From positions 1 to 64,000 of the IMG/VR virus record IMGVR_UViG_3300046457_000118: 64,000 bases of DNA. One strand, given 5' to 3'. Source of the DNA: a virus. The notes below the pieces were generated by a model, which saw only the letters and a program-made list of their open reading frames with translations, did not search any database and was not told the origin of the DNA. The translations under genes were made by a program, and so were the position numbers. This document shows, one piece after another, positions 3,255 to 55,215 of this stretch (the first letter of the stretch is position 1; each line of letters opens with the position of its first letter).

Positions 3255-4442
3255 TTACAGCTTGGCAGCGGTCAGGATCAGGCCCATGCGTTCCGGACGC
3301 AGAGCCATGAAGCCGTAGAACCACTTGATCGACATGAAGCCGGTCTCACCGTACGGGTCATTGCGATCCGCGGTGTCCAGACCCGGCTTCTTGTGCTTGA
3401 TGTCGAACTTGACCGTCTTGCCATCGGTCTGGAAGCCAATGGTGGTGAACGAGCCATCACCGATGACGAGGATCGGCATCACGTCGAACTTGTTGCCGGT
3501 CTCGTAGTGCAGGCCAGCTTCGGCCGAGGCATCAGCGCCAGCACCAGCCCAACGCAGCATTTCCGGTGCCACGACGAAACGGAACGGACCGACTTGGCCG
3601 ACTTCGCCATTCAGGGTGGTACCACCAGCGGCGTACTTCTCGACGTGGACGAAAGCGCGCTCGTCGTGGAAGTCCTTCATCTTCTCCAGCGTCGGCAGCA
3701 GTTCGTTGCCGATGTAGGCGATGCGGGCACCAGGGATGACCTTGGTGTCCACCAGACGGGTACCGGTGATGGCCGTGGTGTGCTTCGGCGTACGGTTATT
3801 GTCCAGATCGATGGACAGGGCCAGCAGGTCTTTGTACTCCACCACGTCATCGGCACCGATGGTGGCCTTCGAGGTGGCGTTACCAGCGTAACGGACGACA
3901 CCAGCAGCCGACAGCAGGTCGATTTGCAGCATGTCTTCGGTGATTTCGAGGGCACCGTTGACCATCTCGCGGTTGATGTGCATTTCGAGGTCTTCGTCCG
4001 AGTCGAAGTCCAGCGACTCTTTCGTGTACTCGTCGAAGAAGCCGAGCTTCTCGAAGGTGCCGGTGATTTCCTTGCGGGTGAAGCCGACACGGTTGACACG
4101 GCCACCGGTTTCCGACAGCAGCGGCAGCTTGCCGTTGATGGTGCCGATGTCCTTGCTCGAACCGTACAGGTTGCCGTTGGCGATGACAGCACCAGCAGCG
4201 TCGAGACCTTGCGAGTTGACATTGGCGTCGTCCAGCAGCGGCAGGTAGTGGTACTGCTTGATTTCCTTGCCGGAGTTCTTCGGCATTGCGCGCACGTCAG
4301 CCAGTTGGCTGAAGACCTGAATCTTGCGTGCTTCGATCAGCGCCTTCTTGTAGTAGTAATACTTGGTGAGTTGATCACCCATGGTGGCATTTGCACCATT
4401 CTTGTCAGTACCGTACTGACGTTGAGTCGTATCGAGAGCCAT
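3255..4442 (-). CDS. Major capsid protein (N4 gp56 family)
   Basis: 395 aa; MPKNSGK, YLPLLDDANVNSQGLDAAG, GNLYGSSKDIG, GRVNRVGF, DPYGETGF motifs typical of N4-like MCP. Confidence 0.95.
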   Translation of the reverse strand: MALDTTQRQYGTDKNGANATMGDQLTKYYYYKKALIEARKIQVFSQLADVRAMPKNSGKEIKQYHYLPLLDDANVNSQGLDAAGAVIANGNLYGSSKDIGTINGKLPLLSETGGRVNRVGFTRKEITGTFEKLGFFDEYTKESLDFDSDEDLEMHINREMVNGALEITEDMLQIDLLSAAGVVRYAGNATSKATIGADDVVEYKDLLALSIDLDNNRTPKHTTAITGTRLVDTKVIPGARIAYIGNELLPTLEKMKDFHDERAFVHVEKYAAGGTTLNGEVGQVGPFRFVVAPEMLRWAGAGADASAEAGLHYETGNKFDVMPILVIGDGSFTTIGFQTDGKTVKFDIKHKKPGLDTADRNDPYGETGFMSIKWFYGFMALRPERMGLILTAAKL

Positions 4443-6134: not shown

Positions 6135-8270
6135 TTATTTCTTGGCAGTAGTCTTTTTCTCCGTCTTGGCCTTGACATGGCCCTTCACAACTTCCAATGC
6201 CATATTCGCGTGCGCCTGTGCACCCTGCTTTTGCAGGTCACGTTCCTGCTTCACACCCGACTCTTGTTCCACGAAGTCGAGGTTCATCTGGTCGGTGGTG
6301 GCACGCAGATTCTCGGCCTTGGCTTGCTCGGTATCGGTCTTTTGAACGGTCAAACCGGCTTCTGCACGAATCTTGGCGGCTTGTGCTTGGAGATTGGCGA
6401 CTTCGAGTTGTACCTTGGCCATTTCCAATTGCTGCATCTGCTGCTGCATCGGATCAGGTTGCGGTTGGTATTCCTCGATACGCTTGGCGAGGTCAGGCAT
6501 CTTCTTCAGACGGCAGATGTCCGACAGGATGATCTTGCGCATGCCAGGGTCTTCATTCGGCCCCATGGTTTGCAAGAGGAAGCCAAGGTCTTGAGCCTTG
6601 CTGTTGTCTTCTTCAGCCGTACTGATCGAGAGTCGCAGATCGTAGTTACCGGCCAGATCATCCCGGCGAATCTGCACGAACTGGTCATTGGTGACCCGAA
6701 TGACTTCTTCTTCCGACAGGAATACCGCGTTCATGGCAATGATCTTGCGACCGATCTCGATCATGCCTTGTGCCAGACGACGCAGAATCCCTAATTCACG
6801 CTTGGATGCAGCATCCAGCGCACCACGTACGCCAGCAGCCACGTCACCCAGAGCCGCTCCGGACACGCCTTGGGAGTACGACTTCACACCAGTCATCGAC
6901 TCGGCTTCCATCTGCTGCAACTGCACCATGAACTGGGCCGATGCGGGAATCTCCGGGTAGGTATGCATGAAGATACCTTGTCGCGGATCGATATTCGGGG
7001 TGTACTCGTAGTCCTGACCCGCTTCATAGCGACGACGGTTGGTCGTATCCAGCATGTTCTTGGCCATACCGGTCTGACCGTTGGCCGATTTGCCCATGAT
7101 GTCGATCATGCCGCGTGTGACCGCACCAATGATCTTCTGGTTGTCTTCCAACAGGGCACCATCCGGCTCGCCATACACGGACTTGCGGACTGGCAGGTAC
7201 TGAACAATGACGAACGGTAGTTTCTTGTCCGGCATGGGGTTCTCTTCCATGCGGATCAGCGTATTACCCACCCACGAAGCCACGATAGGCTTGACGATGC
7301 CGCTACCATCGATGTCTCGATAGCCCCAGTACTCGGTCACTACGAACTTGGTACGTGGTTTGTCGATGAAGTTGAAGTTGGCACCACCATCCGAGGGTGC
7401 ATGGTCCGGATCAGACAGCGGTGAATTGCTGTTGATCATGATGAAGTCCAGATTCTTGTACCGGCCATCCTGCTTCAGTTCGGACAGCGAAGACTCGAAG
7501 GTAACAGCGACGAAACGAGCCTTGTTGATGTCACCCTGACACATCGGATCGACCACCACGTTACGGAAATCCATGATCTCCAAGGTGGGACGATTCACAG
7601 CCAGACGGGTCTTCTCGACTGTCTGGGTACCGATCTGATTCGGACGATACGGTGCACCATACTGCTGGCTCAGTTCCAGTGCCTTGGACACATGGTCTGG
7701 TACATCGACTTGCCCACCCTGTTGCAGCATCGCAGCCTGCTGGAGTTGGGGCGCATAAGAGTCATCCTGTACAAACTCGAACTGCGGTACATCCTCGTTG
7801 TACTTTTCTTCGATGGCTTCCCAGCCTACACGGACGATCACCGTACCTTCGTCGGTAGGAGCACGAACGTACTCATCGATGAACTTCACCTTGTCGATCT
7901 GGGTATTGAACTGGTAGTTCAGCACCATCTCGTTCTGGATCGCCCCTGCCTTGTCTTCCCAACTTACCGGATTGACATTGAAGATGTCAGGACTGGACAG
8001 GAAGGGTTCCGACAGGGCGGCGTAACGCCACTCGGCCTGCTTGCGGATCAGACGAGGAACGATCTGGGAACTGCCCTTCGGAGCATTGGCCTTGGCCTGT
8101 CCCTGCGCGTTGTAGTTGTCGAGCCAGCCATTGATCTTTTGTACTTGTGTTGCGTGAATCGGACGCGCATCTTCCATGTCCTGCTTCAACTCACGCAATT
8201 CGGGGATTTTGGCCCAGTCCACCAGCTTATCTACGGTGCCGATGCCATCTGTTTGCTCAGGAGTGATCAT
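6135..8270 (-). CDS. Portal protein (N4 gp59 family)
   Basis: PRLIRKQAEWRYAALSEPF, GEPDGALLEDNQ, RGALDAASKRE, ISTAEED. Probable start MITPEQ at 8270. Confidence 0.92.
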   Translation of the reverse strand: MITPEQTDGIGTVDKLVDWAKIPELRELKQDMEDARPIHATQVQKINGWLDNYNAQGQAKANAPKGSSQIVPRLIRKQAEWRYAALSEPFLSSPDIFNVNPVSWEDKAGAIQNEMVLNYQFNTQIDKVKFIDEYVRAPTDEGTVIVRVGWEAIEEKYNEDVPQFEFVQDDSYAPQLQQAAMLQQGGQVDVPDHVSKALELSQQYGAPYRPNQIGTQTVEKTRLAVNRPTLEIMDFRNVVVDPMCQGDINKARFVAVTFESSLSELKQDGRYKNLDFIMINSNSPLSDPDHAPSDGGANFNFIDKPRTKFVVTEYWGYRDIDGSGIVKPIVASWVGNTLIRMEENPMPDKKLPFVIVQYLPVRKSVYGEPDGALLEDNQKIIGAVTRGMIDIMGKSANGQTGMAKNMLDTTNRRRYEAGQDYEYTPNIDPRQGIFMHTYPEIPASAQFMVQLQQMEAESMTGVKSYSQGVSGAALGDVAAGVRGALDAASKRELGILRRLAQGMIEIGRKIIAMNAVFLSEEEVIRVTNDQFVQIRRDDLAGNYDLRLSISTAEEDNSKAQDLGFLLQTMGPNEDPGMRKIILSDICRLKKMPDLAKRIEEYQPQPDPMQQQMQQLEMAKVQLEVANLQAQAAKIRAEAGLTVQKTDTEQAKAENLRATTDQMNLDFVEQESGVKQERDLQKQGAQAHANMALEVVKGHVKAKTEKKTTAKK

Positions 8271-8338
8271 ATTTGCCCAGAGGTAAGTTATACTCTGAGG
8301 CATTATCCCATAGTATTTCCCCCCATCAAGGAGTTTCC

Positions 8339-8764
8339 ATGAAGATTCAATTGCTTCGTCCGAACGTACTCGTCCCAACTCGTGGTACCGATCATGCAGG
8401 AGGCTATGACATCTACATGCCAGAAGCGGGCATCATGATGTCGGGCCACACGTACAAGGTTGGACTGGGTTTCGCTACTGCGATCCCACGAAACCATGTG
8501 GCATTGATCCTGCCGCGTTCGGGAATTGGATCGAAGCATGGGATTGAACTGAACAACACCTGCGGAGTGATCGATGCCGACTATCGGGGGGAATGGTTTG
8601 CCACTCTGAACCAGAAAGCAGGTCACAATCCTCTGGCATGGAAGGCCAGCGAGCGGCTGCTTCAGTTCATCGTGGTTCCTGTCTGGACGCCAGACTTAGA
8701 AGTGGTATATTCGCTCGATAGTACCGAGCGAGGTACCGGTGGCTTGGGTTCGACCGGTCAATAA
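8339..8764 (+). CDS. dut: Trimeric dUTPase
   Basis: Motifs AGGYD, PRSG, GVIDADYRGE, RGTGGLGSTG; RBS ATCAAGGAG before ATG 8339. Confidence 0.93.
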   Translation: MKIQLLRPNVLVPTRGTDHAGGYDIYMPEAGIMMSGHTYKVGLGFATAIPRNHVALILPRSGIGSKHGIELNNTCGVIDADYRGEWFATLNQKAGHNPLAWKASERLLQFIVVPVWTPDLEVVYSLDSTERGTGGLGSTGQ

Positions 8765-8810: not shown

Positions 8811-9536
8811 TTACACCCAGCCCATGCGGCGTATCCGGCAGTTTTCCGTAGAGTGGTCCGCTTCCACGTTCTTCATCTCCAACATCTGGCAGGCCTGCTC
8901 ATATTTCTGGGCATAGTTGTTCCCCATGTTGAACTCGTTCTGCATACCCAGCGGGTTGTGCACCCGCGAAGCCACGAAATACAACAGGGCTTCAAGATGG
9001 GTATAGGGCAGTTCGACCTCGATACGAGCCGGATCGAAATATCCCATGGTCACCGCCAGTTGGGCATGGTTTTGCCGGTAGACCAGCGTGACATCTTCGA
9101 GAGGATGGTCCTTGGTGGGCGGTGGAATCCGCAGGGACTTGATCGAAGGCGTGAAATAGCTGCACGGATCGTCTTGGCGGTTCAGTGACAGGTCACGCTG
9201 ACAGGTATCCAGCACCCTTTCAACCTTGATCAGCGTGTCGTCATTGAACGGCTCGCTTGCACTATCGATCAGATAGCGGTTCACCTGTGCCGAACGACGG
9301 TTGTTCACGGCAAACTTGTCGTCGAGCGCGTACACAAGCTGTCCTTCGACTGGACGCAGCAGGATTCGCCCTTCTTTCAGCGTGAACCGCGTGAACAACG
9401 CCGTCAAACCAAGGTTGATATGGGCCAGCACCGCTGGATAGTTGGCTTCCGTGATGGAACCCAAGGTTGCACCACCAATAGCCAGCATGCGGAACTCGCC
9501 ATGCGTCAGTTGATTGAAGATTTCGGAGAGTTTCAT
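8811..9536 (-). CDS. N4 gp67-like virion (adaptor) protein
   Basis: 241 aa, INLGLTALFTRF, LEALLYFVASR, C-terminal GWV; follows terminase. Confidence 0.75.
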   Translation of the reverse strand: MKLSEIFNQLTHGEFRMLAIGGATLGSITEANYPAVLAHINLGLTALFTRFTLKEGRILLRPVEGQLVYALDDKFAVNNRRSAQVNRYLIDSASEPFNDDTLIKVERVLDTCQRDLSLNRQDDPCSYFTPSIKSLRIPPPTKDHPLEDVTLVYRQNHAQLAVTMGYFDPARIEVELPYTHLEALLYFVASRVHNPLGMQNEFNMGNNYAQKYEQACQMLEMKNVEADHSTENCRIRRMGWV

Positions 9537-11849: not shown

Positions 11850-12110
11850 GGTTACCTTATCGGCTGTTTATAGTCGGCAAGGTTACCACAAGGAAATCAG
11901 GAAGGAAATGCTACTGGGAAATTATTATATTTTTTGCAAGAAAAGTCTGGGATATTTTTGCTATTTGCCTACGGTTGTAGTGCACAAAATTTAGGCAGAA
12001 GATTTTGGGAAAATTTCATTTTTGCCTACGATGGTAGTACTTACAGCAGCGAACTCAAAATCTAAAACACCCCCCCCCCCATTAAGGTTTTAGGCTCTCC
12101 TGTGCTGTGT
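11850..12110. repeat. AT-rich non-coding region at the probable genome terminus, with imperfect direct repeats and a C11 tract
   Basis: Strand switch between late and early genes; TTTGCCTACG occurs twice, TGGGA...TTTTTGC three times; poly-C at 12070-12080. Confidence 0.6.
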
Positions 12111-12121
12111 GGTATGCATGC

Positions 12122-12136
12122 GTACGCTGCGCGTGT
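12122..12136 (+). promoter_or_regulatory. Virion-RNAP-type hairpin promoter
   Basis: ACGC-TGC-GCGT; template strand has a C-GCA-G triloop as in N4 GNA-loop promoters; precedes first early gene. Confidence 0.7.
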
Positions 12137-12189
12137 AGTACGGATGGAGTGATCATCCATCTATCAACTAACCTATAGGAGTAGTCATC

Positions 12190-12441
12190 ATGCAAGCATT
12201 CTGGTCTGCGTTCGCTCAGTTCTTTGGTATGCTCACCTCGCTGTTCAGTGCAGGTGAGAAGGCAGCACGTACGTTGGATAACATCGCAGGTGTGGGTGAG
12301 ATCAAGTCCTCCACCTATCTCAAGGAAGCAGTGCATGACCAAGAGGTAGCAGTGGATGAATTCAAGTTCGCTCGTGAGAAGCGGGTTGCTGAACTCAATG
12401 CCAAGCGTGCTGCTCTGACTGCACCTGCTGCCAACCCGTAA
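12190..12441 (+). CDS. First early protein, hypothetical
   Basis: 83 aa, RBS TAGGAG, followed by a TTCG-loop terminator. Confidence 0.8.
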   Translation: MQAFWSAFAQFFGMLTSLFSAGEKAARTLDNIAGVGEIKSSTYLKEAVHDQEVAVDEFKFAREKRVAELNAKRAALTAPAANP

Positions 12442-12492: not shown

Positions 12493-12672
12493 ATGAAGTT
12501 CTATCTCTATCTGGCTTTGACCACGCTGTTCATGTTGCTGGCTATCCCATCGCTGTTGTTCGGCTTCAAGCTGGCTCAGATGTATAACCTGATGGTATTG
12601 GTCCCGATTCCTGCCATGTTCTGCTGTGTTGGTATTGCATTGTTCGGCCATAAGCTGGAGCAGTGCGCATGA
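12493..12672 (+). CDS. Small two-TM early membrane protein (59 aa)
   Basis: Not in track. RBS CTCAAGGAG; MKFYLYLALTTLFMLLAIPSLLFG... Confidence 0.7.
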   Translation: MKFYLYLALTTLFMLLAIPSLLFGFKLAQMYNLMVLVPIPAMFCCVGIALFGHKLEQCA

Positions 12673-13624: not shown

Positions 13625-13639
13625 GGCCACTCCGTGGCC
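13625..13639 (+). promoter_or_regulatory. Candidate vRNAP hairpin promoter
   Basis: GGCCAC-TCC-GTGGCC (template loop GGA). Confidence 0.5.
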
Positions 13640-13666: not shown

Positions 13667-13891
13667 ATGAAGAACCTCAAGCACTTTGCACTGGCTTGCC
13701 TGTGCTATTTCACCATCATCATGTTGATGGAATGCTTCAACCTGATGAATGACAAACCTTTCATCTATGCGGACATCGAGTTCTTCTCGATTTCCTTGGT
13801 CATCATGATTCAAGGTGCATTGGGTATCTACCATGCCATCATGATGTTCCACGTACATGATGAATACTTCGACCTGAAAGAAATCGACTGA
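13667..13891 (+). CDS. Two-TM early membrane protein
   Basis: Start MKNLKHFALACL after TCAAGGAC RBS; two hydrophobic segments. Confidence 0.7.
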   Translation: MKNLKHFALACLCYFTIIMLMECFNLMNDKPFIYADIEFFSISLVIMIQGALGIYHAIMMFHVHDEYFDLKEID

Positions 13892-14113: not shown

Positions 14114-14126
14114 CACGCTGCGCGTG
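14114..14126 (+). promoter_or_regulatory. Virion-RNAP-type hairpin promoter
   Basis: CACGC-TGC-GCGTG; shares ACGCTGCGCGTGTA with the 12.1 kb copy. Confidence 0.7.
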
Positions 14127-14185
14127 TACAACGGTGCTCGAACAATCGGGCACTCTCACTTAATCCATCCTTCCCGGAGATCATC

Positions 14186-14503
14186 ATGAATCAACTGTTC
14201 CAACCGAAATTCGCCAATCCTTCCGCTCCTGCTGCTGCAACGGTTACTAAAGAAAAGTGGATGAAAGACGGCTTCCTGAACTTCGATCTGCCTGATCCGC
14301 GTTCGGCTGATGGTTTCGCCAAGTTCGGTTCCATCGGTATCGATCTGAAGAATGTCCGTCATCGCAAGCTGATCGAATGGCTGCTGGCTGATGGTGGTGC
14401 TCACTACAATGATCGCATCAAGGTCGTGCAGCAATCGTTCCGTATCACCTTCCGCACTGCCGAGAAAGACGAGTCCGTCGGCTTCGTTCTGCCGGGCATG
14501 TGA
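14186..14503 (+). CDS. Drc / N4 gp2-like ssDNA-binding activator of RNAP II
   Basis: W..DGFLNFDLP...KFGSIGI...KLIEWL resembles LUZ7 Drc; located just before RNAP II genes. Confidence 0.6.
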   Translation: MNQLFQPKFANPSAPAAATVTKEKWMKDGFLNFDLPDPRSADGFAKFGSIGIDLKNVRHRKLIEWLLADGGAHYNDRIKVVQQSFRITFRTAEKDESVGFVLPGM

Positions 14504-14546: not shown

Positions 14547-14602
14547 GCTTGCTCTGCCCTGCGGGTGTACGCGGGTATTACCTATAACTCAAGGAGAACA
14601 AT

Positions 14603-14770
14603 ATGAACGTGCAAGAAGCCATTAAGAGTCTGGAACTCACGAAACATACTGAAGCCAAGCTGATGGTATATATACAGACTGGTCCTTATAGTTGGGAATG
14701 GAAAGAAGTGACTCACTTCGTTTCATTAGCAACATCTGAACATGGTGTGATCATTGATGTGAACTACTAG
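14603..14770 (+). CDS. Small hypothetical protein (55 aa)
   Basis: Not in track. RBS ACTCAAGGAGAAC; MNVQEAIKSLELTKH... Confidence 0.7.
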   Translation: MNVQEAIKSLELTKHTEAKLMVYIQTGPYSWEWKEVTHFVSLATSEHGVIIDVNY

Positions 14771-14779
14771 GAGAACAAC

Positions 14780-15706
14780 ATGATCATCGGTGAAATCAAC
14801 GAAGCCATTGCCTACATCAATCAGGAAGCCAACGAGAAGCGATACAACCGTAAGCATATCGATGGCTATATCCGTGACGAGATCAACGCCAGTCCCATGC
14901 TGACAGAGCGTGTGGACATTGGTGTCGCCATGTTGGAACACTGGATGTCCTTGGACTGGTATGAGTCCAAGCGCAAGCGACTGGATCAGTTGCATGGACT
15001 GGACCTGCGTGAGTTGGTCATGGACCTATTCGTGGGTCTGTCCTACTTCATCCGTGAGGAACTGTTTACCAGTGTCACGGCACAGTTGGCTGGCAAGCTC
15101 AGGTTCAGTGATAAGCCTGAAGCCATCAAGACCACAGCAGAGATCATCGCTGTGCTGTCCAAGATGGATGTGTTTGCCATCACCAAGAAGACCAAGCAGT
15201 CATCCCTGATGCTGGTCAGCTACCTGCCACTGTCACCCAAGCTGAAGGACTTCATCGACCAGAGCGAGTATCTTCCACCCATGGTGTGTGAGCCTAGGAA
15301 ACTCACCAGTAACTACAGCAGTGGCTATCTCAGCCACAATGACAGCCTGATCCTGAAGGCAGGCAACCACCACGATGGTGACATCTGCCTCGACGTGCTC
15401 AACCTGATGAACAGGGTGAAGCTGTCGTTGAACTTGGAGTTCCTCAGTACGGTCGAGGAAATGCCGAGTGAGGCACCGAATACGCAAGAGCAGTTGGATA
15501 ACTGGAACAGGTTCAAGAAGCAGTCGTATCGTTTCTATGAACTGATGGTGAGTCAGGGTAATTGCTTTTATCTGTGCCACAAAGTCGATAAAAGAGGTAG
15601 AATATACGCTAGCGGATATCATATTTCAACCATGGGATCGTCCTTCAAGAAAGCGTCCATCGAGTTGCATAAGAAGGAGTTTATTGAAGGCGTTCCCACC
15701 TCATAA
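14780..15706 (+). CDS. RNA polymerase II subunit 1 (N4 gp15-like)
   Basis: LPPMVCEP and DKRGRIY (T7-family DxRGR motif). Confidence 0.9.
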   Translation: MIIGEINEAIAYINQEANEKRYNRKHIDGYIRDEINASPMLTERVDIGVAMLEHWMSLDWYESKRKRLDQLHGLDLRELVMDLFVGLSYFIREELFTSVTAQLAGKLRFSDKPEAIKTTAEIIAVLSKMDVFAITKKTKQSSLMLVSYLPLSPKLKDFIDQSEYLPPMVCEPRKLTSNYSSGYLSHNDSLILKAGNHHDGDICLDVLNLMNRVKLSLNLEFLSTVEEMPSEAPNTQEQLDNWNRFKKQSYRFYELMVSQGNCFYLCHKVDKRGRIYASGYHISTMGSSFKKASIELHKKEFIEGVPTS

Positions 15707-15716
15707 GGAACCTTTG

Positions 15717-16376
15717 ATGGCGAAGCCAAAGAAGAATGTGGTAGGCGAAGTGTATGGGCGCTTAACCATCACAGGTGACGCACCTTACCGTACCAAAGAC
15801 CGTCGCGTGTACGTTCAGTGTGAGTGCGGTAATGCCAAGGATGTGCTCTTAGGTGATCTGCGTAGGGGCGATACCGTGTCTTGTGGTTGTTACCTTAAAG
15901 AAGTAATCATGGTACATGGTGACGCCACTACACGCCTGTACAAAATCTTCAAGGGTATGCATAACAGGTGCTGCCTACCATCCACTACTCGCTATGTCGA
16001 GTACGGTGGTAGAGGCATCCGTGTCTGCCCTGAATGGCACGATTATGAAGTGTTCCGGGCATGGGCACTAACGCATGGCTACGAAGATACCTTGAGCATT
16101 GACCGTAAGGACAATGACAAGAATTACGAGCCAGATAACTGTAGGTGGATACCGAAAGGCCATCAACAGCGCAACAAGCGTGTAATAGGTGCCTCATCCC
16201 AATACGTCGGTGTTACCAAGTGCAAACAAACCGGACGCTGGTTAGCCATGATCAAGGTCGATGGCAAACAGAAGAATCTTGGTCGCTATGACACTGAAGC
16301 GGAAGCAGCAAAAGCACGCGATAACTATATCGTGGTGAATGCATTGGAGCATTACATCATGAATAACATACTCTAA
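15717..16376 (+). mobile_element. Free-standing HNH homing endonuclease with C-terminal AP2 domain
   Basis: YGRLT, CECG, SCGC, YGGRGI, SIDRKDNDKNYEPDNCRW, then YVGV...NLGRYDTEAEAAKARD. Confidence 0.88.
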
Positions 16377-16392
16377 CTCAAGGAGAAATACC

Positions 16393-17655
16393 ATGAAAAG
16401 CTTCACAGGTTGGGAATACATGCTGATCGACGTGGCCAATAACTATGGTCATGACAAGGAACTGTTCGAGACCCGTATCGATTGGGCTAACAGGCATATG
16501 CATGAACTGGAAGCCATTGCAGGTGCTGCGGATAACTATCCTCAGTACTGCAAGGGTGTGATGGCCATCCGTGCAGCCATGCGTGGTGAAGCCATTGGCC
16601 ATACGGTGGCATTGGATGCCGTGTGTTCTGGCATTCAGATCATGTCGGCACTGACTGGTTGTATTACTGGTGCAACAGCGACTGGATTGGTGGATCCGGA
16701 TCGTAGGGCTGATGCTTATGGGCAATTGCAGGCCATGATGCAGGGTGAACTGGGTATGGCATTCACCGTATCGCGTGGTGATGCCAAGGATGCGATGATG
16801 CCCATGTTCTATGGCAGCAAGAAGAAGCCAGTGGAGATCTTCGGGGAAGGTACCGAAGAACTCAGTGCCTACTACCGTCAGGTGAAGGAACTGGCACCAG
16901 GTGCTTGGGAAGCTCTGCAAACCCTGCTTGCTTCGTGGCAATCACATGCTCTGGTGCATGAATGGAAGCTGCCTGATGGCTTCCATGCCCGTATCAAGGT
17001 CATGACCAAGGTGACGGCTGATGATAGCCGTAGCCGTATCGAGGTGGACGAGTTGGATGGTGCCACCTTCACCTATGAGTACAAGATCAATGAGGCTACC
17101 GAGCGTGGTGTCAGCAATGCAGCCAATGTAATTCACAGTATTGATGCGTGGATCATGCGTAGCATGCACCGTCGCTGTAACTATGACAAAGCCATGGTGG
17201 AAGAAGCATATGGTATGTGTCGTGGTACGCTGTCTGATCGTACTGTATTCGGTACGCAGCGGGTATGTGATGAGACTGACGACAGGATCACCTACTATAT
17301 GCAACAGTACGAGCGCAGTGGCTTGGCTGATGTGGTGATCTTGCCGTACATCGACATGTACAGTGTAGAGAGGTTGAGCAATCAGCATCTGCAAGACCTA
17401 ATCCGCATCATGGATAGCATGCTCAAGCACCCACCCTTCGAGTTGATCACGGTGCACGACGAGTTCAGGTGCTGCCCGAACTACATGAACCATGTGCGTC
17501 AACACTACATCGACATCTTTGCCGAGATCGCGGACAGTGATCTGCTGGGTGACATCCTGTCCCAGATTCATGGTTTCCATGGTCAGGTGCACAAGCTGTC
17601 TGGTCCGGGAGAGTTGTCGGCATTGATCCGGAACAGCAACTACAGCTTGTCTTGA
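16393..17655 (+). CDS. RNA polymerase II subunit 2 (N4 gp16-like)
   Basis: Motif A LDAVCSGIQ, motif B RGDAKDAMMPMFYG, AANVIHSID, motif C VHDEF. Confidence 0.93.
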   Translation: MKSFTGWEYMLIDVANNYGHDKELFETRIDWANRHMHELEAIAGAADNYPQYCKGVMAIRAAMRGEAIGHTVALDAVCSGIQIMSALTGCITGATATGLVDPDRRADAYGQLQAMMQGELGMAFTVSRGDAKDAMMPMFYGSKKKPVEIFGEGTEELSAYYRQVKELAPGAWEALQTLLASWQSHALVHEWKLPDGFHARIKVMTKVTADDSRSRIEVDELDGATFTYEYKINEATERGVSNAANVIHSIDAWIMRSMHRRCNYDKAMVEEAYGMCRGTLSDRTVFGTQRVCDETDDRITYYMQQYERSGLADVVILPYIDMYSVERLSNQHLQDLIRIMDSMLKHPPFELITVHDEFRCCPNYMNHVRQHYIDIFAEIADSDLLGDILSQIHGFHGQVHKLSGPGELSALIRNSNYSLS

Positions 17656-17662
17656 TAGCAAA

Positions 17663-17698
17663 ATGGTATTACCCTTCGGGGTAATACCACTTCTTTTT
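17663..17698 (+). terminator. Terminator
   Basis: TGGTATTACCC-TTCG-GGGTAATACCA followed by CTTCTTTTT. Confidence 0.85.
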
Positions 17699-17713
17699 CC
17701 CAAGGAAACCATC

Positions 17714-18034
17714 ATGAACCAAGCACAGATCGATGCATTGGTCCGTCAGCATTTGCCTGATTGGGCCATCAAACGGGCCAATGGACTGGAACTGGGTGCC
17801 CAGTTGCCTACCCGAGATGGCCGCAAGACCGGGAATGCCCACATCGTGGACATCAAGCCAGCCGAACGAGGCCGTATGGGCTTGAGCTACCTGATCCTGA
17901 CAGATGCCGGGAACAGCTTCATCATGAGTGAGCCGGAGGTACTGGCCCAGTACTATCCACCCGAGTTCGTGGGTGATGTGCAGGCCATCATTGGCAAGTT
18001 CTGGCGTCACTCTGAACCATTACTGGTAGCGTAA
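17714..18034 (+). CDS. Hypothetical protein
   Basis: Start MNQAQID after CAAGGA; GAQLPTRDGRKTGNA motif. Confidence 0.75.
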   Translation: MNQAQIDALVRQHLPDWAIKRANGLELGAQLPTRDGRKTGNAHIVDIKPAERGRMGLSYLILTDAGNSFIMSEPEVLAQYYPPEFVGDVQAIIGKFWRHSEPLLVA

Positions 18035-18040
18035 GACAGG

Positions 18041-18055
18041 GCACGCTCCGCGTGC
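18041..18055 (+). promoter_or_regulatory. Virion-RNAP-type hairpin promoter
   Basis: GCACGC-TCC-GCGTGC; template GGA triloop as in N4 P2. Confidence 0.7.
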
Positions 18056-18057
18056 TG

Positions 18058-18141
18058 GCGTGAGAACGTTCTGTCGTTCTCCTTGAGTGGAATCCTTGAT
18101 TCCTTTGGGAGTGGTCCTTGACTGGTCCACTCTCTTTTTTT
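18058..18141 (+). ncRNA. Candidate small RNA with three UCCUUGA anti-RBS motifs
   Basis: Promoter hairpin, three stem-loops and a T7 tail; TCCTTGA at 18080, 18093 and 18115. Confidence 0.55.
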
Positions 18142-18188
18142 ATCCCTCGACTGTTGGCCTGACTAAGACAGTCATTAAGGAACTGTCC

Positions 18189-23922: not shown

Positions 23923-25172
23923 TGACTGATACCGACGACATTGAATTGACCGTCGAGCAGAGTGTAGCACTGGATTTCTTTTGCCAGTTCCTGATGGACC
24001 CGGACATGCCTGTAATGAGGCTGTCCGGTTACGCAGGCACCGGCAAGTCCACCTTGGTGCGTATCCTGCTCAAGCGTCTGGATGGCTACATGAAGATGTG
24101 GGAGTTGCTGACCAGCGACCGTCCCGATCTGGAAGTCGCCTTGACCGCCACCACCAACAAGGCAGCGGAAGCCTTACATGACATCACCGGCAAGACGGTC
24201 ACCACCATCCACAGCTTCCTTGGCTTACGTCCCGTAAGGGATGCCGGTGGTCAGATGAAACTGGTACCTGCCAAGCGGGCATCGGTCAAGTTCGACTACC
24301 TGCTGTTCGTCGACGAAGCCAGCATGATCGATCCGGAATTGTTGGGACTGATCTTCCAGCAAACCAAGGATTGCAAGATCGTGTTCATGGGTGACAAGGC
24401 GCAGCTACTGCCGGTCAAGCACAACAAGGCTCCTGTCTTCGAGGCACCCTTCCCGGAAGCAGCCCTGACCCAAGTGGTACGTCAGGCCGCAGGCAGTCTG
24501 ATCAATGCACTGGCCACCCAGTTTAGGGAGACCGTTGCTACTGGTATCTGGACACCCTTCGAGCCGGATGGCCAAGCCGTCATCCATCTGGACCGGGAGG
24601 CATTCGATCAGGCAGTCATGACCGAGTTCAACCGTCCGGACTGGCACTATGCCGACTCGAAGGTGCTGTCGTTCACCAACCACCGTGCGATCACTTACAA
24701 CAACGCCTTGCGTGACTTCATCAAGGGCAGTCCGGAACTGCAAGAGGGTGACTACGCCATCTGCAACAGCTATGTCCGGGTGGGTGAGCACAGCATCAAG
24801 ACCGATGCCATGGTCAAGATCACGTGCATCGAAGACCCTTGCGAAATCCATGCAGTGCAGGGACGCTACGTCACCATCAACGAGCATGTCCGTGTGTTCG
24901 CACCATACAACCCACAGGACATCCGGCGCATGAACGACTGGGCCACCAAGCAGATGAACTGGAAGGTACAGCGTGAAGTGGAAAGCTGGATCGATCTGCG
25001 TGCAGCCTATGCCCAGACCGTTAACAAGTCGCAGGGTTCCACCTACGACAAGGTGTTCATCGATATCGATGATATTTCCACCTGCACCAGTGGGAACACC
25101 ATCGCTCGCCTGATGTACGTGGCCGTATCGCGTGCACGTCATCAGGTCTACCTGACAGGAGATTTTGGATGA
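23922..25172 (+). CDS. SF1B Dda/RecD-like DNA helicase
   Basis: GYAGTGKS, DEASM, GDKAQL, TVNKSQGSTY, YVAVSRAR. Confidence 0.93.
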   Translation: MTDTDDIELTVEQSVALDFFCQFLMDPDMPVMRLSGYAGTGKSTLVRILLKRLDGYMKMWELLTSDRPDLEVALTATTNKAAEALHDITGKTVTTIHSFLGLRPVRDAGGQMKLVPAKRASVKFDYLLFVDEASMIDPELLGLIFQQTKDCKIVFMGDKAQLLPVKHNKAPVFEAPFPEAALTQVVRQAAGSLINALATQFRETVATGIWTPFEPDGQAVIHLDREAFDQAVMTEFNRPDWHYADSKVLSFTNHRAITYNNALRDFIKGSPELQEGDYAICNSYVRVGEHSIKTDAMVKITCIEDPCEIHAVQGRYVTINEHVRVFAPYNPQDIRRMNDWATKQMNWKVQREVESWIDLRAAYAQTVNKSQGSTYDKVFIDIDDISTCTSGNTIARLMYVAVSRARHQVYLTGDFG

Positions 25173-36371: not shown

Positions 36372-36485
36372 AAGCCACCTCGTGGGTGGCTTCGGTGTAG
36401 ATAAGGATCACCTTCCTTTCGGTAGTTGATGCGTTGCTCTAAGTAAATAATATTTGCTCAGGGTACTAGCGTCAACTACTTTTTT
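36372..36485 (+). other. Structured convergent intergenic element (short hairpin, 16S-tail-like motif, long G-U hairpin with T6)
   Basis: AAGCCACC/GGTGGCTT; GGATCACCTTCCTTTC; GTAGTTGATGC...GCGTCAACTAC followed by TTTTTT. Confidence 0.5.
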
Positions 36486-50711: not shown

Positions 50712-50726
50712 GGGCACTCCGTGCCC
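50712..50726 (+). promoter_or_regulatory. TCC-loop hairpin (vRNAP-promoter-like)
   Basis: GGGCAC-TCC-GTGCCC, intergenic. Confidence 0.45.
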
Positions 50727-50759: not shown

Positions 50760-51761
50760 ATGAACAAACGCTATGCCAATACGTCCAGTGTCCCGTTGTC
50801 ATTGGCCGTCTTCCTCGCTACCGACAACTACGACTACAACGACGACCCCTATACCATCAGTGCGACCACGCTGCTCAAGCCAACTCGCCAGATCGTGCTG
50901 TCGCAACGGGTACCCGCCAACAGTGTGACACTGGACCTCGTAGCCCAGATGAACACCCGCATGGGTTCGGCTGTGCACGATGCCATTGAACGCTCGTGGA
51001 AGGACAACTACAAGAACGCACTGGAAGCCATTGGCATTCCGAAGTTCGTCATCAACAAGGTCCGCATCAACCCGACCAATGCCGAACTGGCTGCTGATCC
51101 TGACATCATCCCGGTGTACATGGAACAGCGCATGCAACGCAATATCGGCAAGTGGACCGTCAGCGGCAAGTTCGACTTCATCGGTGAAGGCCGGGTGCAG
51201 GACTTCAAGACGGCGACGATCTGGTCTTACATGAATCAGGTCAACGCATGGAAGCAGATGATGCAGGGTTCCCTGTATCGCTGGCTCGATCCGAACAAGA
51301 TCACGCAGGATCAGATGGACATCATTCACATCTTCAAGGATTGGATGCCTGCGATGGTCGCTACCGACCCGAATTATCCGAAGCAACCCTTTGCCGTGCA
51401 GACCTTCAACCTGCTGCCCTACGACGAGACCGACCGATTCGTCAGTGTCAAGCTGGCGGAGATCGAACGCTGCATGGATGCTGACGATGCCGATATCCCT
51501 GACTGCGGTGAGGACGATCTGTGGCGTAGCAAGACGGTCTACAAGTACTATGCCAATGGCTTTGCCGGTGCCAAGAAAAGCTCGAAGAACTTCGAGGACT
51601 TGGCTTCTGCCAACCAGCACATGTACACCGAGAAGGGTGGCAAGGGTGAAGTCGTCACCGTGTATGGCACCGTCAAGGCATGCAACCACTGTGCCGCAGC
51701 CCCCGTCTGTGGCCAGCGTGAACGCCTGATCGCCTCGGGCCACCTGCTCAAGCAGATTTAA
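50760..51761 (+). CDS. PD-(D/E)xK exonuclease, Cas4/RecB-like, N4-conserved
   Basis: SATTLLKP, GSAVH, GKFD...DFK, C-terminal CNHC....VC. Confidence 0.8.
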   Translation: MNKRYANTSSVPLSLAVFLATDNYDYNDDPYTISATTLLKPTRQIVLSQRVPANSVTLDLVAQMNTRMGSAVHDAIERSWKDNYKNALEAIGIPKFVINKVRINPTNAELAADPDIIPVYMEQRMQRNIGKWTVSGKFDFIGEGRVQDFKTATIWSYMNQVNAWKQMMQGSLYRWLDPNKITQDQMDIIHIFKDWMPAMVATDPNYPKQPFAVQTFNLLPYDETDRFVSVKLAEIERCMDADDADIPDCGEDDLWRSKTVYKYYANGFAGAKKSSKNFEDLASANQHMYTEKGGKGEVVTVYGTVKACNHCAAAPVCGQRERLIASGHLLKQI

Positions 51762-54397: not shown

Positions 54398-54412
54398 GCA
54401 CCCTCCGGGTGC
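54398..54412 (+). promoter_or_regulatory. TCC-loop hairpin (vRNAP-promoter-like)
   Basis: GCACCC-TCC-GGGTGC followed by a second hairpin CAGGCCGG...CTGGCCTG. Confidence 0.5.
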
Positions 54413-54468
54413 ACATTCGGAAAATACAGGCCGGTGTCTGCTGGCCTGTTCTCAACCAAGGAAACCAA

Positions 54469-55215
54469 ATGAGTGATGATACTCAAGTAACCAGCGTCAA
54501 TGACTTCCTCGTGGCAGTCGTAGGCAAATCCTCGACCGGCAAATCGGCTTCGCTGATGGGCATCGAGAACCCGGAAGGCGTGGCCTATGCCAACTGTGAA
54601 GCGGGCAAGAAGCTGCCCTTCCGCTCGAAGTTCAAGGAAATTACGATCACCGATCCCTTCCAGGTGATCCAACTCCTGCAAGAAGTCGAAGAGATGCCCG
54701 ACATCCATACCGTGGCCATCGACTCGCTGTCGTTCCTGTTGGAGATGTATGTTTCCCTGTACGTGGTCACCAACACGGCCAATGGCATGAAGGCATGGGG
54801 CGAGTTCGCCCAGTTCGTCAAGAACATGTTCCAGCAACACGTTGCCGCATCGACCAAGAACATCATCTTCATCTCGCACACCGCCGACAAGTATAACGAG
54901 TCGGAACTGGTGAGCGAAGTAGCAATGCCGGTGCAGGGTTCGACCAAGAACGTTGGCCTCGAAGCCTACTTCTCGCTGGTCATCGCCACCAAGAAGGTCA
55001 AGATCAAGGAACTGGAGAAGTACAAGAACCCCATGCTGACCATCACCGAGGAAGACCAGATCCTCGGCTACAAGCATGTGTACCAGACCCGCCTTACCAA
55101 AGAGACTTCGAACGAACGTCTCCGTGGTCCGATGGGCATGTGGTCGATCCAAGAGACCTACATCGACAACAACATTCAACACGTCATCAACCGTCTGAGG
55201 GAGTACTACGCCTAA
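54469..55215 (+). CDS. Sak4-like ssDNA-annealing ATPase (N4 gp44)
   Basis: GKSSTGKS, NCEAGKKLPF, IDSL, GLEAYFS. Confidence 0.85.
   Translation: MSDDTQVTSVNDFLVAVVGKSSTGKSASLMGIENPEGVAYANCEAGKKLPFRSKFKEITITDPFQVIQLLQEVEEMPDIHTVAIDSLSFLLEMYVSLYVVTNTANGMKAWGEFAQFVKNMFQQHVAASTKNIIFISHTADKYNESELVSEVAMPVQGSTKNVGLEAYFSLVIATKKVKIKELEKYKNPMLTITEEDQILGYKHVYQTRLTKETSNERLRGPMGMWSIQETYIDNNIQHVINRLREYYA

Follow-up and report, generated by a model that had tools for sequence, protein, structure and literature searches.

Beyond N4 and LUZ7, little is yet understood of how N4-like phages pass transcription from the virion polymerase that they inject to RNAPII, and the locus described here raises the question of whether a short RNA takes part in that step. 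The window, which is the whole stretch of DNA analysed, comprises positions 1 to 64,000 (64,000 nt) of IMG/VR virus record IMGVR_UViG_3300046457_000118. Within it, positions 18041-18141 had been read from sequence as the gene of a small RNA that represses early phage genes through their ribosome-binding sites (RBSs). We think that the locus is probably a module that marks the early/middle boundary in a LUZ7-like Schitovirus. The module itself is evident from sequence and comparison; we infer that it acts as a promoter, where transcription starts and how termination is balanced against read-through.

Organization of the locus

The locus contains the following features.

17714-18034, + strand: upstream gene of unknown function (phrog_9905); TAA stop at 18032..18034, with the hairpin starting 6 nt downstream
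18041..18055, + strand: hairpin GCACGC-TCC-GCGTGC, putative DNA-hairpin promoter, from the sequence, the N4 rules (PMC4496689) and the description of LUZ7 middle promoters (PMC9163698)
18062..18062, + strand: putative transcription start G, 14 nt past the loop centre, from the Y-G rule
18062..18081, + strand: stem-loop 1, GAGAACG / CGTTCTC, from the fold; its 3' arm belongs to the 13-nt anti-RBS segment
18076..18088, + strand: anti-RBS segment GTTCTCCTTGAGT, exact reverse complement of the RBS at 14587-14599
18089..18103, + strand: stem-loop 2, GGAATC CTT GATTCC, containing the second TCCTTGA (18093-18099)
18101..18107, + strand: TCCTTTG variant, mostly paired or stem-adjacent (mean unpaired probability 0.29)
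18107..18141, + strand: intrinsic terminator GGGAGTGG / CCACTCTC plus T7; stem arms span 18107-18134 and T7 is 18135-18141
18164..18171, + strand: second copy of TAAGACAG; the first copy (18032-18039) overlaps the stop codon
18177..18191, + strand: RBS AAGGAA and ATG (18189) of the first middle-operon gene, from the sequence

The hairpin, the three stem-loops and the T7 tract of the original prediction were all located where it had placed them, as were its TCCTTGA copies at 18080, 18093 and 18115 (the + strand of the window holds 11 in total) and the TCCTTTG variant at 18101. The 8-nt direct repeat TAAGACAG flanks the module on both sides. The terminator has an 8-bp GC-rich stem (GGGAGTGG/CCACTCTC) with one G-U pair, a loop that holds the third TCCTTGA, and a U7 directly after the stem. 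A simple terminator scan missed it because the loop is 12 nt long. A second strong terminator is present at 17664-17700, downstream of the RNAPII gene, so that 18107-18141 is not the sole early stop.

It had been claimed that no plausible open reading frame (ORF) precedes the terminator, and we agree, since no RBS-bearing ORF fits in the element. We considered whether translation from GTG 18087 could give a leader peptide or an N-terminal extension and rejected this, because the site has no Shine-Dalgarno (SD) sequence and its frame crosses the terminator. A tRNA search found none, and Rfam at the gathering threshold gave no match; the only weak one, sbrA, scored 14.3 bits where the threshold is 45 (E = 2.6). 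A blastn search of 50,697 phage records with the 155-nt spacer as query gave no match.

A family of TCC-loop hairpins

The hairpin at 18041-18055 is one of a family of four sites with loop centres at 13632, 18048, 50719 and 54405. All are intergenic, GC-rich, 6-bp hairpins on the + strand that have a TCC loop and begin 4-7 nt past a stop codon, and the three others are 22-50 nt upstream of start codons. By our estimate, about 0.3 hairpins with any stem composition would be expected by chance. The LUZ7 genome contains exactly four intergenic TCC hairpins, and at all eight TCC hairpins of the two phages there is a Y-G step 13/14 nt past the loop centre. When 12 sites from 5 phages were compared, the loop and the outer G:C pair were constant and five of the six stem pairs varied on both sides, with the 100% pairing partly a matter of construction because the hairpins had been selected as perfect. 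A T follows 11 of these 12 hairpins. Because they sit just past stop codons and are so often followed by T, they could instead, or in addition, be RNA 3'-end elements. The other terminators of the phage are hairpins with TTCG tetraloops and T-runs, unlike the TCC hairpins. A search of IMG/VR with the exact hairpin sequence gave 82 matches, which were unrelated.

The stem at 18041-18055 has 6 bp, 5 of them G:C pairs, and with its 3-nt loop it fits the 5-7-bp stem of N4-type hairpins. On the template strand the loop is GGA (GNA-type) with a C:G closing pair. Extrusion and recognition of the N4 hairpins involve a template loop 5'-G-R-A-3' closed by C:G, together with -9C and -8G (PMC4496689); here, G18050 and C18051 of the non-template strand give template -9C and -8G, as the N4 determinants require. 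The N4 ruler (+1 is 8 nt after -8) puts the start on C18059, and a G stands 14 nt past the loop centre (+14), as it does in all eight sites of the phage and LUZ7. The four middle promoters described for LUZ7 are hairpins with a GC-rich stem no shorter than 6 bp and a loop of 3-4 nt, and transcription starts at a G about 15 bp farther on (PMC9163698). The TCC hairpins agree with this in stem, loop and predicted G start. Judging from number, shape and position, the TCC hairpins of LUZ7 would be its four published middle promoters.

From this comparison the TCC hairpins are more likely to be of the middle (RNAPII/Drc) class than of the vRNAP class, with the polymerase class uncertain because the N4 rule reads a GGA loop as a vRNAP (early) signal. 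Of the vRNAP-type promoter originally proposed, we therefore keep the hairpin promoter for a phage RNA polymerase and not the assignment to vRNAP, the middle class being more likely by analogy with LUZ7 (PMC9163698). The probable early promoters of the phage form a separate family (C-TGC-G..GTGTA) at 12127, 14118 and 14559 that have GCA template loops. No Drc homologue was found in the protein encoded at 14186-14503, which has neither similarity to LUZ7 gp14 nor a PHROG match. Its gene stands behind an early-type hairpin, as does LUZ7 gp14, and it is possible that a non-homologous single-strand-binding protein occupies the place of Drc.

A conserved unit behind the RNAPII genes

A protein search yielded six relatives with an RNAPII large subunit that is 72-78% identical. 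In LUZ7 and PA26, the RNAPII large-subunit gene is followed by a hairpin, 45-80 nt and then a terminator with a T-run. L002, a 72-kb metagenome phage, has the same hairpin-terminator unit one small gene further on. In more distant genera the terminator alone is kept at that position, and all Schitoviridae examined have a terminator downstream of the RNAPII genes. The hairpin sites that are syntenic in our phage and LUZ7 are past the RNAPII genes, before the exonuclease gene and at the primase/Sak4-like junction. A TCC-loop (template GGA) hairpin before the post-RNAPII terminator is common to at least four divergent lineages, and the promoter-proximal terminator is likely to be a control point of the early-to-middle switch.

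The viral and genome contigs scanned contained no DNA from a close relative, and a metagenome scan gave relatives at 51-61% identity among the matches listed. In Zuri, P184, Ea9-2 and ZX86, the homologues of the upstream gene occupy other positions in the middle region and no TCC hairpin is near them, so that these loci were rejected as uninformative.

A promoter ahead of a terminator is an odd arrangement. One possibility for its conserved order is that early transcription that pauses or ends 60-90 bp further on unwinds the DNA behind it and so aids hairpin extrusion.

Predicted RNA and roles of the module

The + strand of the element folds with -32.9 kcal/mol (z = -4.7), and 0 of 200 shuffles were equally stable. 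The assignment to the + strand in the original prediction holds, given the template GNA triloop GGA, the G-U pair in the terminator stem and the T7 after it. The predicted terminator-bounded product is about 80 nt long with a U7 tail, and its 5' end would be base-paired because stem-loop 1 begins at the putative +1. A discrete transcript of about 80 nt, as had been proposed, is plausible, since on the + strand a hairpin promoter precedes an intrinsic terminator. A search for an alternative antiterminator fold in the leader found none.

In the boundary module that we favor, the 15-bp inverted repeat would extrude as a DNA hairpin with a GGA triloop on the template strand, and a phage RNA polymerase would initiate from it. 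The analogy with LUZ7 makes RNAPII with a single-strand-binding cofactor the likeliest enzyme. Transcription would begin at G18062, and the first 80 nt would fold into three stem-loops, the last of which would be a strong intrinsic terminator. The segment may then have three roles. It would stop transcripts arriving from the early genes and so form the early mRNA 3' end; it would be a structured leader that RNAPII must read through to reach the 18-kb middle operon; and whenever termination occurs it would release an RNA of about 80 nt that is paired at its 5' end and finishes in U7. Between 18141 and 36400 there are no hairpins of the TCC class. Because the hairpin at 18048 is the only one ahead of the 18-kb middle operon, the segment is a leader/attenuator and early 3' UTR at least as much as it is a small RNA gene. 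What is retained of the free-standing small RNA gene is thus a plausible short, terminated RNA, but not as the sole role of the locus.

The four UCCUU motifs are a real, lineage-specific addition to this module. Their likeliest function, which is a conjecture, is pairing with AAGGAG-type early RBSs, above all those of the genes starting at 14603 and 16393. Such pairing could occur in trans through the short RNA or in cis through the early mRNA's own 3' UTR.

Complementarity to ribosome-binding sites

Over its full 13 nt, the segment at 18076-18088 is the exact reverse complement of 14587-14599, and it also matches the RBS of the RNAPII large-subunit gene over 12 nt (16376-16387). At the RBSs of genes starting at 12493, 13667, 14780, 8339 and 29458, the matches are 8-10 nt long. 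Both the long and the shorter matches had been reported in the original prediction and are present. Genes were taken from a codon-usage caller with some start codons fixed by hand. We used contiguous-match statistics and opening energies in place of RNAduplex without accessibility, which gave inflated values with huge internal loops.

Compared with 1000 dinucleotide shuffles, the counts of RBS matches gave P = 0.23 for at least 7 nt, P = 0.08 for at least 8 nt, P = 0.09 for 9 nt and P = 0.02 for at least 10 nt, and the longest match (13 nt) gave P = 0.01. With shuffles that kept the four TCCTT blocks, P was 0.83 at 7 nt, 0.55 at 8 nt, 0.39 at 9 nt and 0.017 for the longest match. Pairing beyond that of shuffled sequence, on which the idea of a repressor had been made to depend, was therefore seen for the long match (P about 0.01-0.02) and not for the counts of 7-9-nt matches. 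This bears out the caveat made at the time that short SD matches come cheaply. The strong matches share one segment and one family of similar RBSs and thus represent a single coincidence.

A second caveat, that the first seed is partly stem-paired, also applies, since the 3' arm of stem-loop 1 lies within 18076-18088. The duplex of the 13-mer has an energy of -20.5 kcal/mol with an opening cost of 8.9, leaving a net of about -11.6 kcal/mol after stem-loop 1 is opened. Every motif is half inside a stem, and opening costs 4-6 kcal/mol compared with -8 to -11 for a 7-8-nt duplex.

The occurrence of four TCCTT in 40 nt is unique on both strands of the 76-kb genome, with an expectation of about 0.003 per strand. 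The three heptamers, spaced 13 and 22 nt apart, are identical and their 4-nt flanks are all different, which suggests selection on the heptamer. A search for the three-heptamer pattern found only tandem repeats, apparently within coding regions. Matches of at least 8 nt were found at 5 of 14 early-gene RBSs and at 5 of 66 others (Fisher P = 0.012), an enrichment that arises in part because early SDs are of the stronger AAGGAG type. In LUZ7, PA26 and L002, TCCTTGA-type repeats are absent from the orthologous modules and the leaders can pair over at most 6 nt with the start regions annotated in the same genome; the L002 leader also has one 8-nt match, at an unverified ORF start.

Alternative explanations

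A free-standing trans-acting RNA of about 80 nt with three or four UCCUUGA-type seeds would block the RBSs of early mRNAs, including those for both RNAPII subunits, and perhaps AAGGA-type RBSs of the host. It would time the early-to-middle switch and, if made by RNAPII, exert negative feedback on RNAPII synthesis. The boundaries set by promoter and terminator, with the paired 5' end and U7 tail, are in keeping with this, as are the perfect 13-nt and 12-nt matches, the identical heptamers in a cluster unique in the genome, the early-RBS enrichment and the favorable net pairing of the 13-mer. By contrast, the match counts at 7-9 nt are at the level of both shuffle types, the strong matches come down to one segment, the motifs are half stem-bound and costly to open, the enrichment partly reflects SD strength, distant leaders lack the complementarity, Rfam offers no match, and the same promoter has to drive the middle operon too. 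We consider this explanation unlikely, and slightly more so in the specific form in which RNAPII makes the RNA and three UCCUUGA seeds silence early AAGGAG RBSs, those of both RNAPII subunit genes among them. The multi-seed repressor that had been proposed is not supported so far, with its short matches at the level of composition and its sole long match half in a stem, and the conservation of motifs expected of it was not seen in the three orthologous leaders. The statement that no such RNA has been described for N4-like phages agrees with our limited literature searches; the putative small RNAs of LUZ7 are at a different locus.

A little less likely again is that the motifs have no dedicated function and that there is no promoter, so that the segment does no more than close the early operon with a terminator and a 3' UTR of several hairpins. 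A local duplication of about 20 nt (GAGTGG..TCCTTGA..) would then have left the TCCTTGA copies behind, and the TCC hairpins would be RNA 3'-end or stability elements. The terminator past the RNAPII genes in every Schitovirus examined fits with this, as do the position of the TCC hairpins a few nt past stops, the T next to 11 of 12, and the lack of the anti-SD trait in distant relatives. GAGTGG(AA)TCCTTGA occurs both in stem-loop 2 and in the terminator's 5' half, consistent with duplication. However, the constant loop and covarying stems fit sequence-specific recognition of a DNA GNA triloop rather than a terminator, and the true terminators of the phage look different, with their TTCG tetraloops and T-runs. 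This explanation also does not account for the Y-G at +13/+14 in 8 of 8 sites, leaves the middle operons with no candidate promoter, and does not predict that the heptamers are kept perfectly while their flanks have diverged.

The anti-SD segment could also act in cis. On an early mRNA of about 14559-18141, the 3' UTR would fold onto 14587-14599 and the RNAPII large-subunit RBS and would limit translation or trigger cleavage. Pairing between the 3' UTR and 5' UTR of icaR mRNA in Staphylococcus aureus is a parallel. The element's own predicted early transcript carries the 13-nt and 12-nt targets as well as the RNAPII small-subunit RBS with its 8-nt match, and intramolecular pairing demands less affinity than pairing in trans. 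Nevertheless, the terminator at 17664-17700 should stop many early transcripts short of the element, cis pairing depends on the same single coincidence as the trans-acting RNA, and the trait is not kept in LUZ7, PA26 or L002. We regard pairing in cis as quite improbable.

Slightly more improbable is that the repeats are protein-binding sites, in RNA, single-stranded DNA or double-stranded DNA, for a factor that controls terminator read-through or hairpin-promoter activity. Such a factor is compatible with the placement of three identical heptamers, each in a different sequence context, directly between promoter and terminator, and with the read-through of terminators in LUZ7, which is stage-dependent (PMC9163698), but no candidate binding protein was identified, the orthologous modules lack the repeats and the spacing of 13 and 22 nt is irregular.

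A functional RNA from the minus strand, such as a CsrA/RsmA-type sponge with three CAAGGA, one AAAGGA and the GGA triloop, is very hard to credit: that strand folds well (-28.3 kcal/mol, z = -4.2) and has AUCAAGGAU-like GGA motifs, some in loops, but the + strand fold is more stable, the minus strand has neither a promoter-like site here nor a T-run past the last hairpin to act as terminator, the G-U of the terminator stem becomes a C-A mismatch, and the hairpins of the family are without exception oriented with the + strand genes.

Comparison with known systems

Taken as an early/middle boundary module, the locus suggests a search rule for middle promoters in uncultured Schitoviridae, namely a GC-rich 6-bp stem, a TCC loop and a Y-G at +13/+14. 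If the anti-SD repeats act on early RBSs, they would add RNA-based translational control to a programme that polymerases and single-strand-binding cofactors alone have explained until now; a trans-acting repressor, if real, would form a negative loop on RNAPII and be the first riboregulator within the three-polymerase temporal programme of a Schitovirus. If the repeats are inactive, the locus remains a compact natural promoter-terminator part for single-subunit phage polymerases.

Type I 3'UTR-derived small RNAs of enterobacteria, such as DapZ and MicL, are transcribed from a promoter of their own where a coding region ends and use the terminator of the mRNA. Like them, the RNA of the element would be about 80 nt long, start from a promoter right past a stop codon, share a U-tailed terminator and carry a seed against initiation regions. 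Their promoters are sigma-dependent, whereas that of the element is a predicted phage single-strand hairpin promoter that probably also drives the operon. Small RNAs with multiple anti-SD motifs include RsaE/RoxS, the alphaproteobacterial CcsR/'cuckoo' RNAs and the Betaproteobacteria toxic small RNA (RF02278). These resemble the element in having several C/U-rich anti-SD motifs on successive hairpins bounded by a terminator. Their motifs are wholly in loops and kept across genera, whereas those of the element straddle stem and loop and are absent in distant relatives; unlike these RNAs, the element is phage-encoded and has no Rfam match.

With promoter-proximal terminators and attenuators, and with the stage-dependent terminator read-through reported for LUZ7 (PMC9163698), the phage shares a terminator at most 80 nt from the predicted start that has to be read through for the operon to be expressed; as a difference, neither an alternative antiterminator fold nor a leader peptide was found in its leader. 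With the unit behind gp22 of LUZ7 and PA26 the phage shares a GC-rich stem of at least 6 bp, the TCC loop, a predicted G start about 14 nt past the loop centre, and a site past the RNAPII large-subunit gene and before an intrinsic terminator that ends in T7. LUZ7 also has further copies of the hairpin ahead of the exonuclease gene and behind the primase gene, as does the phage. The phage differs in that a small gene and an extra terminator part the module from the RNAPII gene, and in having two extra UCCUUGA stem-loops between promoter and terminator, which make the leader 80 nt long compared with about 48-62 nt in LUZ7 and PA26.

Hairpin 18048 shares with the vRNAP promoters P1-P3 of N4 (PMC4496689) the 5-7-bp stem, the GGA template loop, the C:G closure, -9C and -8G. 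P1-P3 lie at the left genome end and drive early genes, whereas the probable early promoters of the phage are of the GCA-loop family. The start G is 11-12 nt from the loop centre in N4 compared with 14 nt for the putative start in the phage. In LUZ7-like phages, the GGA class appears to belong to the middle polymerase.

Gene layout of the phage

The virus record is 76,358 bp long with 54.8% G+C, and the window is its first 64 kb. RNAPII subunits are encoded in it, as are an ATPase, an exonuclease, a primase, a Sak4-like protein and a giant virion RNA polymerase. This gene content identifies the source as an N4-like phage of the Schitoviridae. The large subunit of RNAPII is at most 48% identical to that of any phage in the annotated collection, where its closest counterparts are those of the Pseudomonas Litunavirus and Luzseptimavirus groups. 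From about 12190 the genes run rightward, following a left-end non-coding region at about 11850-12190. This region contains a run of 11 C at 12070-12080 (+); the first early-type hairpin described below follows about 45 nt downstream.

RNAPII genes of the phage
14780-15706, RNAPII subunit gene
16393-17655, RNAPII subunit gene (large subunit)

Between the two lies an ORF of 230 aa (15684-16376, +) with HNH-endonuclease and AP2-like motifs, as judged by eye. In several relatives, VL1, JWAlpha and pVco-5 among them, RNAPII genes are interrupted or flanked by homing endonucleases.

Two families of hairpins

A scan for perfect hairpins with 3-nt loops returned four GC-rich 6-bp hairpins with a TCC loop, centered at 13632, 18048, 50719 and 54405. 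All four are on the + strand, are intergenic and start 4-7 nt past a stop codon. The three sisters of the 18048 hairpin each have a start codon 22-50 nt downstream.

Sister hairpins of the TCC family
13625-13639, +, GGCCAC/GTGGCC, ahead of the gene starting at 13667
50712-50726, +, GGGCAC/GTGCCC, ahead of the gene starting at 50760 (exonuclease)
54398-54412, +, GCACCC/GGGTGC, ahead of the gene starting at 54469 (Sak4-like)

In all four, a pyrimidine-G step stands at +13/+14 relative to the loop centre, and the 18048 and 50719 sites also have GCGTGA at equal distance. On the template strand the loop reads 5'-GGA-3' with a C:G closing pair, which are determinants of hairpin extrusion and recognition in N4 vRNAP promoters (PMC4496689). 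The real terminators of this phage are different and have TTCG tetraloops followed by T-runs. The 50-nt leader after the 54405 hairpin contains a second hairpin (54434-54455). One further site, at 24231, is not of this class; it lies inside a gene, its stem is GC-poor and it has no pyrimidine-G step.

A second family, C-TGC-G(C/G)GTGTA, occurs exactly three times. A GG follows its loop centre by about 13-15 nt, and its template loop, GCA, is also a GNA triloop.

Short hairpins with a TGC loop, exact copies of CTGCG(C/G)GTGTA
12127-12137, +
14118-14128, +
14559-14569, +

All three precede early genes at the left end, and two of them come after terminators. These are probably the vRNAP early promoters of this phage.

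A probable promoter nested upstream of the post-RNAPII terminator

In both LUZ7 and PA26 the RNAPII large-subunit gene is followed directly by a TCC hairpin, 20-40 nt, a strong terminator with a T7 tract and the next gene. These units, at 8238-8307 in LUZ7 and 4252-4322 in PA26, are unannotated. Each would yield an RNA of about 48-62 nt from the inferred start. A 72-kb metagenome phage (L002; 53% RNAPII identity) has an equal arrangement one small gene further on, as does the window phage. At the post-RNAPII position of CB1, phiAxp-3, F22 and Philippe we found a terminator but no TCC hairpin. Judged by this distribution, what is conserved is a hairpin promoter nested immediately ahead of the terminator downstream of the RNAPII genes. 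The original prediction had read 18041-18141 as a phage hairpin promoter, a short structured RNA and a terminator on the + strand; this reading is supported, and the element now has its place within a conserved module of Schitoviruses.

In the window phage, a strong terminator with an 11-bp stem, a TTCG loop and a T-rich tail (17664-17700, +) directly follows the large-subunit gene, so the gene at 17714-18034 has a terminator on either side and lacks its own promoter. A perfect direct repeat, TAAGACAG, brackets the promoter-terminator module at 18032-18039 and 18164-18171. The L002 module is likewise bracketed, by ATCAGTAAC at 8732-8740 and 8812-8820, and the first copy sits at the upstream stop codon in both phages. 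We estimate the joint chance of bracketing repeats in both at roughly 0.005. They could be the footprint of cassette insertion, or a coincidence. The promoter-stem-loop cassettes of T4-type phages offer a parallel for such insertion.

Structure and pairing of the RNA

All sequence features that had been listed for the element were recovered at the same coordinates. The predicted fold of 18056-18146 (91 nt) has the three stem-loops exactly as proposed; at -32.9 kcal/mol (z = -4.7) it was more stable than every one of 200 shuffles. No tRNA was found in the element, no Rfam family matched it and no similar sequence was present among 50,697 phage records. TCCTTGA occurs three times within 36 nt of the element versus 11 times on the + strand of the window, and its four TCCTT within 40 nt are the single such cluster on both genome strands (expectation about 0.003 per strand). 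The three heptamers are identical whereas their flanks are completely different, which argues for selection on the heptamer, whether at the level of RNA pairing, of protein binding or of DNA.

Segment 18076-18088 is the perfect reverse complement of the ribosome-binding site (RBS) at 14587-14599 and matches 12 nt of the RBS of the RNAPII large-subunit gene. Positions -25 to +8 of 80 genes, called with a codon-usage model and manual fixes of some start codons, were searched for complementarity to the RNA. Shuffles either preserved dinucleotides or retained the four TCCTT blocks.

Matches between the RNA and the RBSs of 80 genes
RBSs with a match of at least 7 nt: 20 observed; dinucleotide shuffles, mean 15.4, P = 0.23; TCCTT-keeping shuffles, mean 24.5, P = 0.83
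RBSs with a match of at least 8 nt: 10 observed; dinucleotide shuffles, mean 4.9, P = 0.08; TCCTT-keeping shuffles, P = 0.55
RBSs with a match of at least 10 nt: 3 observed; dinucleotide shuffles, P = 0.02; TCCTT-keeping shuffles, P = 0.09
Longest RBS match: 13 nt observed; dinucleotide shuffles, P = 0.01; TCCTT-keeping shuffles, P = 0.017

All the long matches come from one RNA segment and from RBSs that resemble one another, with the form (ACT)CAAGGAGAAC, and so count as roughly one event. Matches of at least 8 nt are enriched in early genes (5/14 vs 5/66, P = 0.012), and AAGGAG-type SDs are stronger in early genes. Each anti-SD motif straddles a stem with an opening cost of 4-6 kcal/mol; for the 13-mer, the duplex is worth -20.5 kcal/mol vs 8.9 kcal/mol for opening.

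The leader RNAs of LUZ7, PA26 and L002, from inferred start to T-run, were complementary to annotated start regions of their own phage over stretches of 6 nt at most; L002 has one 8-nt complementarity, at an unverified ORF start. Stem-loops 1 and 2, like the UCCUUGA repeats, were added in this lineage. The proposal that the RNA is a multi-seed repressor acting in trans on early RBSs has one long match in its favour and failed the comparison with these leaders for conservation; beyond that match, our analysis neither excludes nor supports it. The best targets share a predicted early transcript with the element, so the data fit a fold-back in cis onto the RBSs of that transcript as well as they fit action in trans. 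A functional RNA from the minus strand is unlikely: its CAAGGA motifs resemble CsrA/RsmA sites and it folds well (z = -4.2), but it has neither a promoter-like site nor a terminator, its main stem is one base pair poorer and it opposes the orientation of the entire TCC hairpin family.

This phage has a second anti-SD-like string in a terminator region (36372-36485, +). This string, GGATCACCTTCCTTTC, is close to the 3' tail of 16S rRNA. It lies where the rightward middle block has its 3' end, with a hairpin on either side and a T6 run after it.

Proposed working of the module

From the + strand promoter, transcription would be expected to start at G18062, so that stem-loop 1 would begin with the first nucleotide of the RNA. 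Downstream of 18141 there is no other hairpin of the TCC class up to where the rightward block ends (about 36400), and a polymerase starting here would therefore have to read through the terminator. Such read-through would allow expression of the middle operon, including the ATPase and the DNA polymerase. This 80-nt stretch may then do three things: form the 3' end of those early transcripts that get past the first terminator (17664-17700), serve as leader for middle transcripts and, whenever termination wins, be released as a free RNA of about 80 nt. Neither an alternative antiterminator fold nor a leader peptide was found in the 80-nt leader. In LUZ7, stage-dependent terminator read-through has been documented, without explanation (PMC9163698).

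Comparison with LUZ7 and N4

Hairpin promoters and putative sRNAs have been described for LUZ7, with no such RNA at this locus in the literature searchable here. LUZ7 has exactly four intergenic TCC-loop hairpins with stems of at least 6 bp (8245, 9529, 35259 and 39361), all four with the pyrimidine-G step at +13/+14. Its published middle promoters are also four, GC-rich hairpins with stems of at least 6 bp and loops of 3-4 nt, and start at a G about 15 bp downstream (PMC9163698). We infer, on this close agreement, that the two sets are the same. Two of the four have gene contexts like those in the window phage, between primase and Sak4-like genes and ahead of an exonuclease gene. In 12 sites taken from five phages, neither the loop nor the outer G:C pair varies. 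Five of six stem pairs have changed on both sides, with pairing kept by construction because the sites were chosen as perfect hairpins.

Upstream of gp14 (Drc), LUZ7 also has two 5-bp TAC-loop hairpins 32 nt apart. This pair fits the published tandem early promoters, 33 nt apart (PMC9163698), and resembles the TGC-loop early sites of the window phage. The -9C and -8G of N4 vRNAP promoters (PMC4496689) are also present at the 18048 site.
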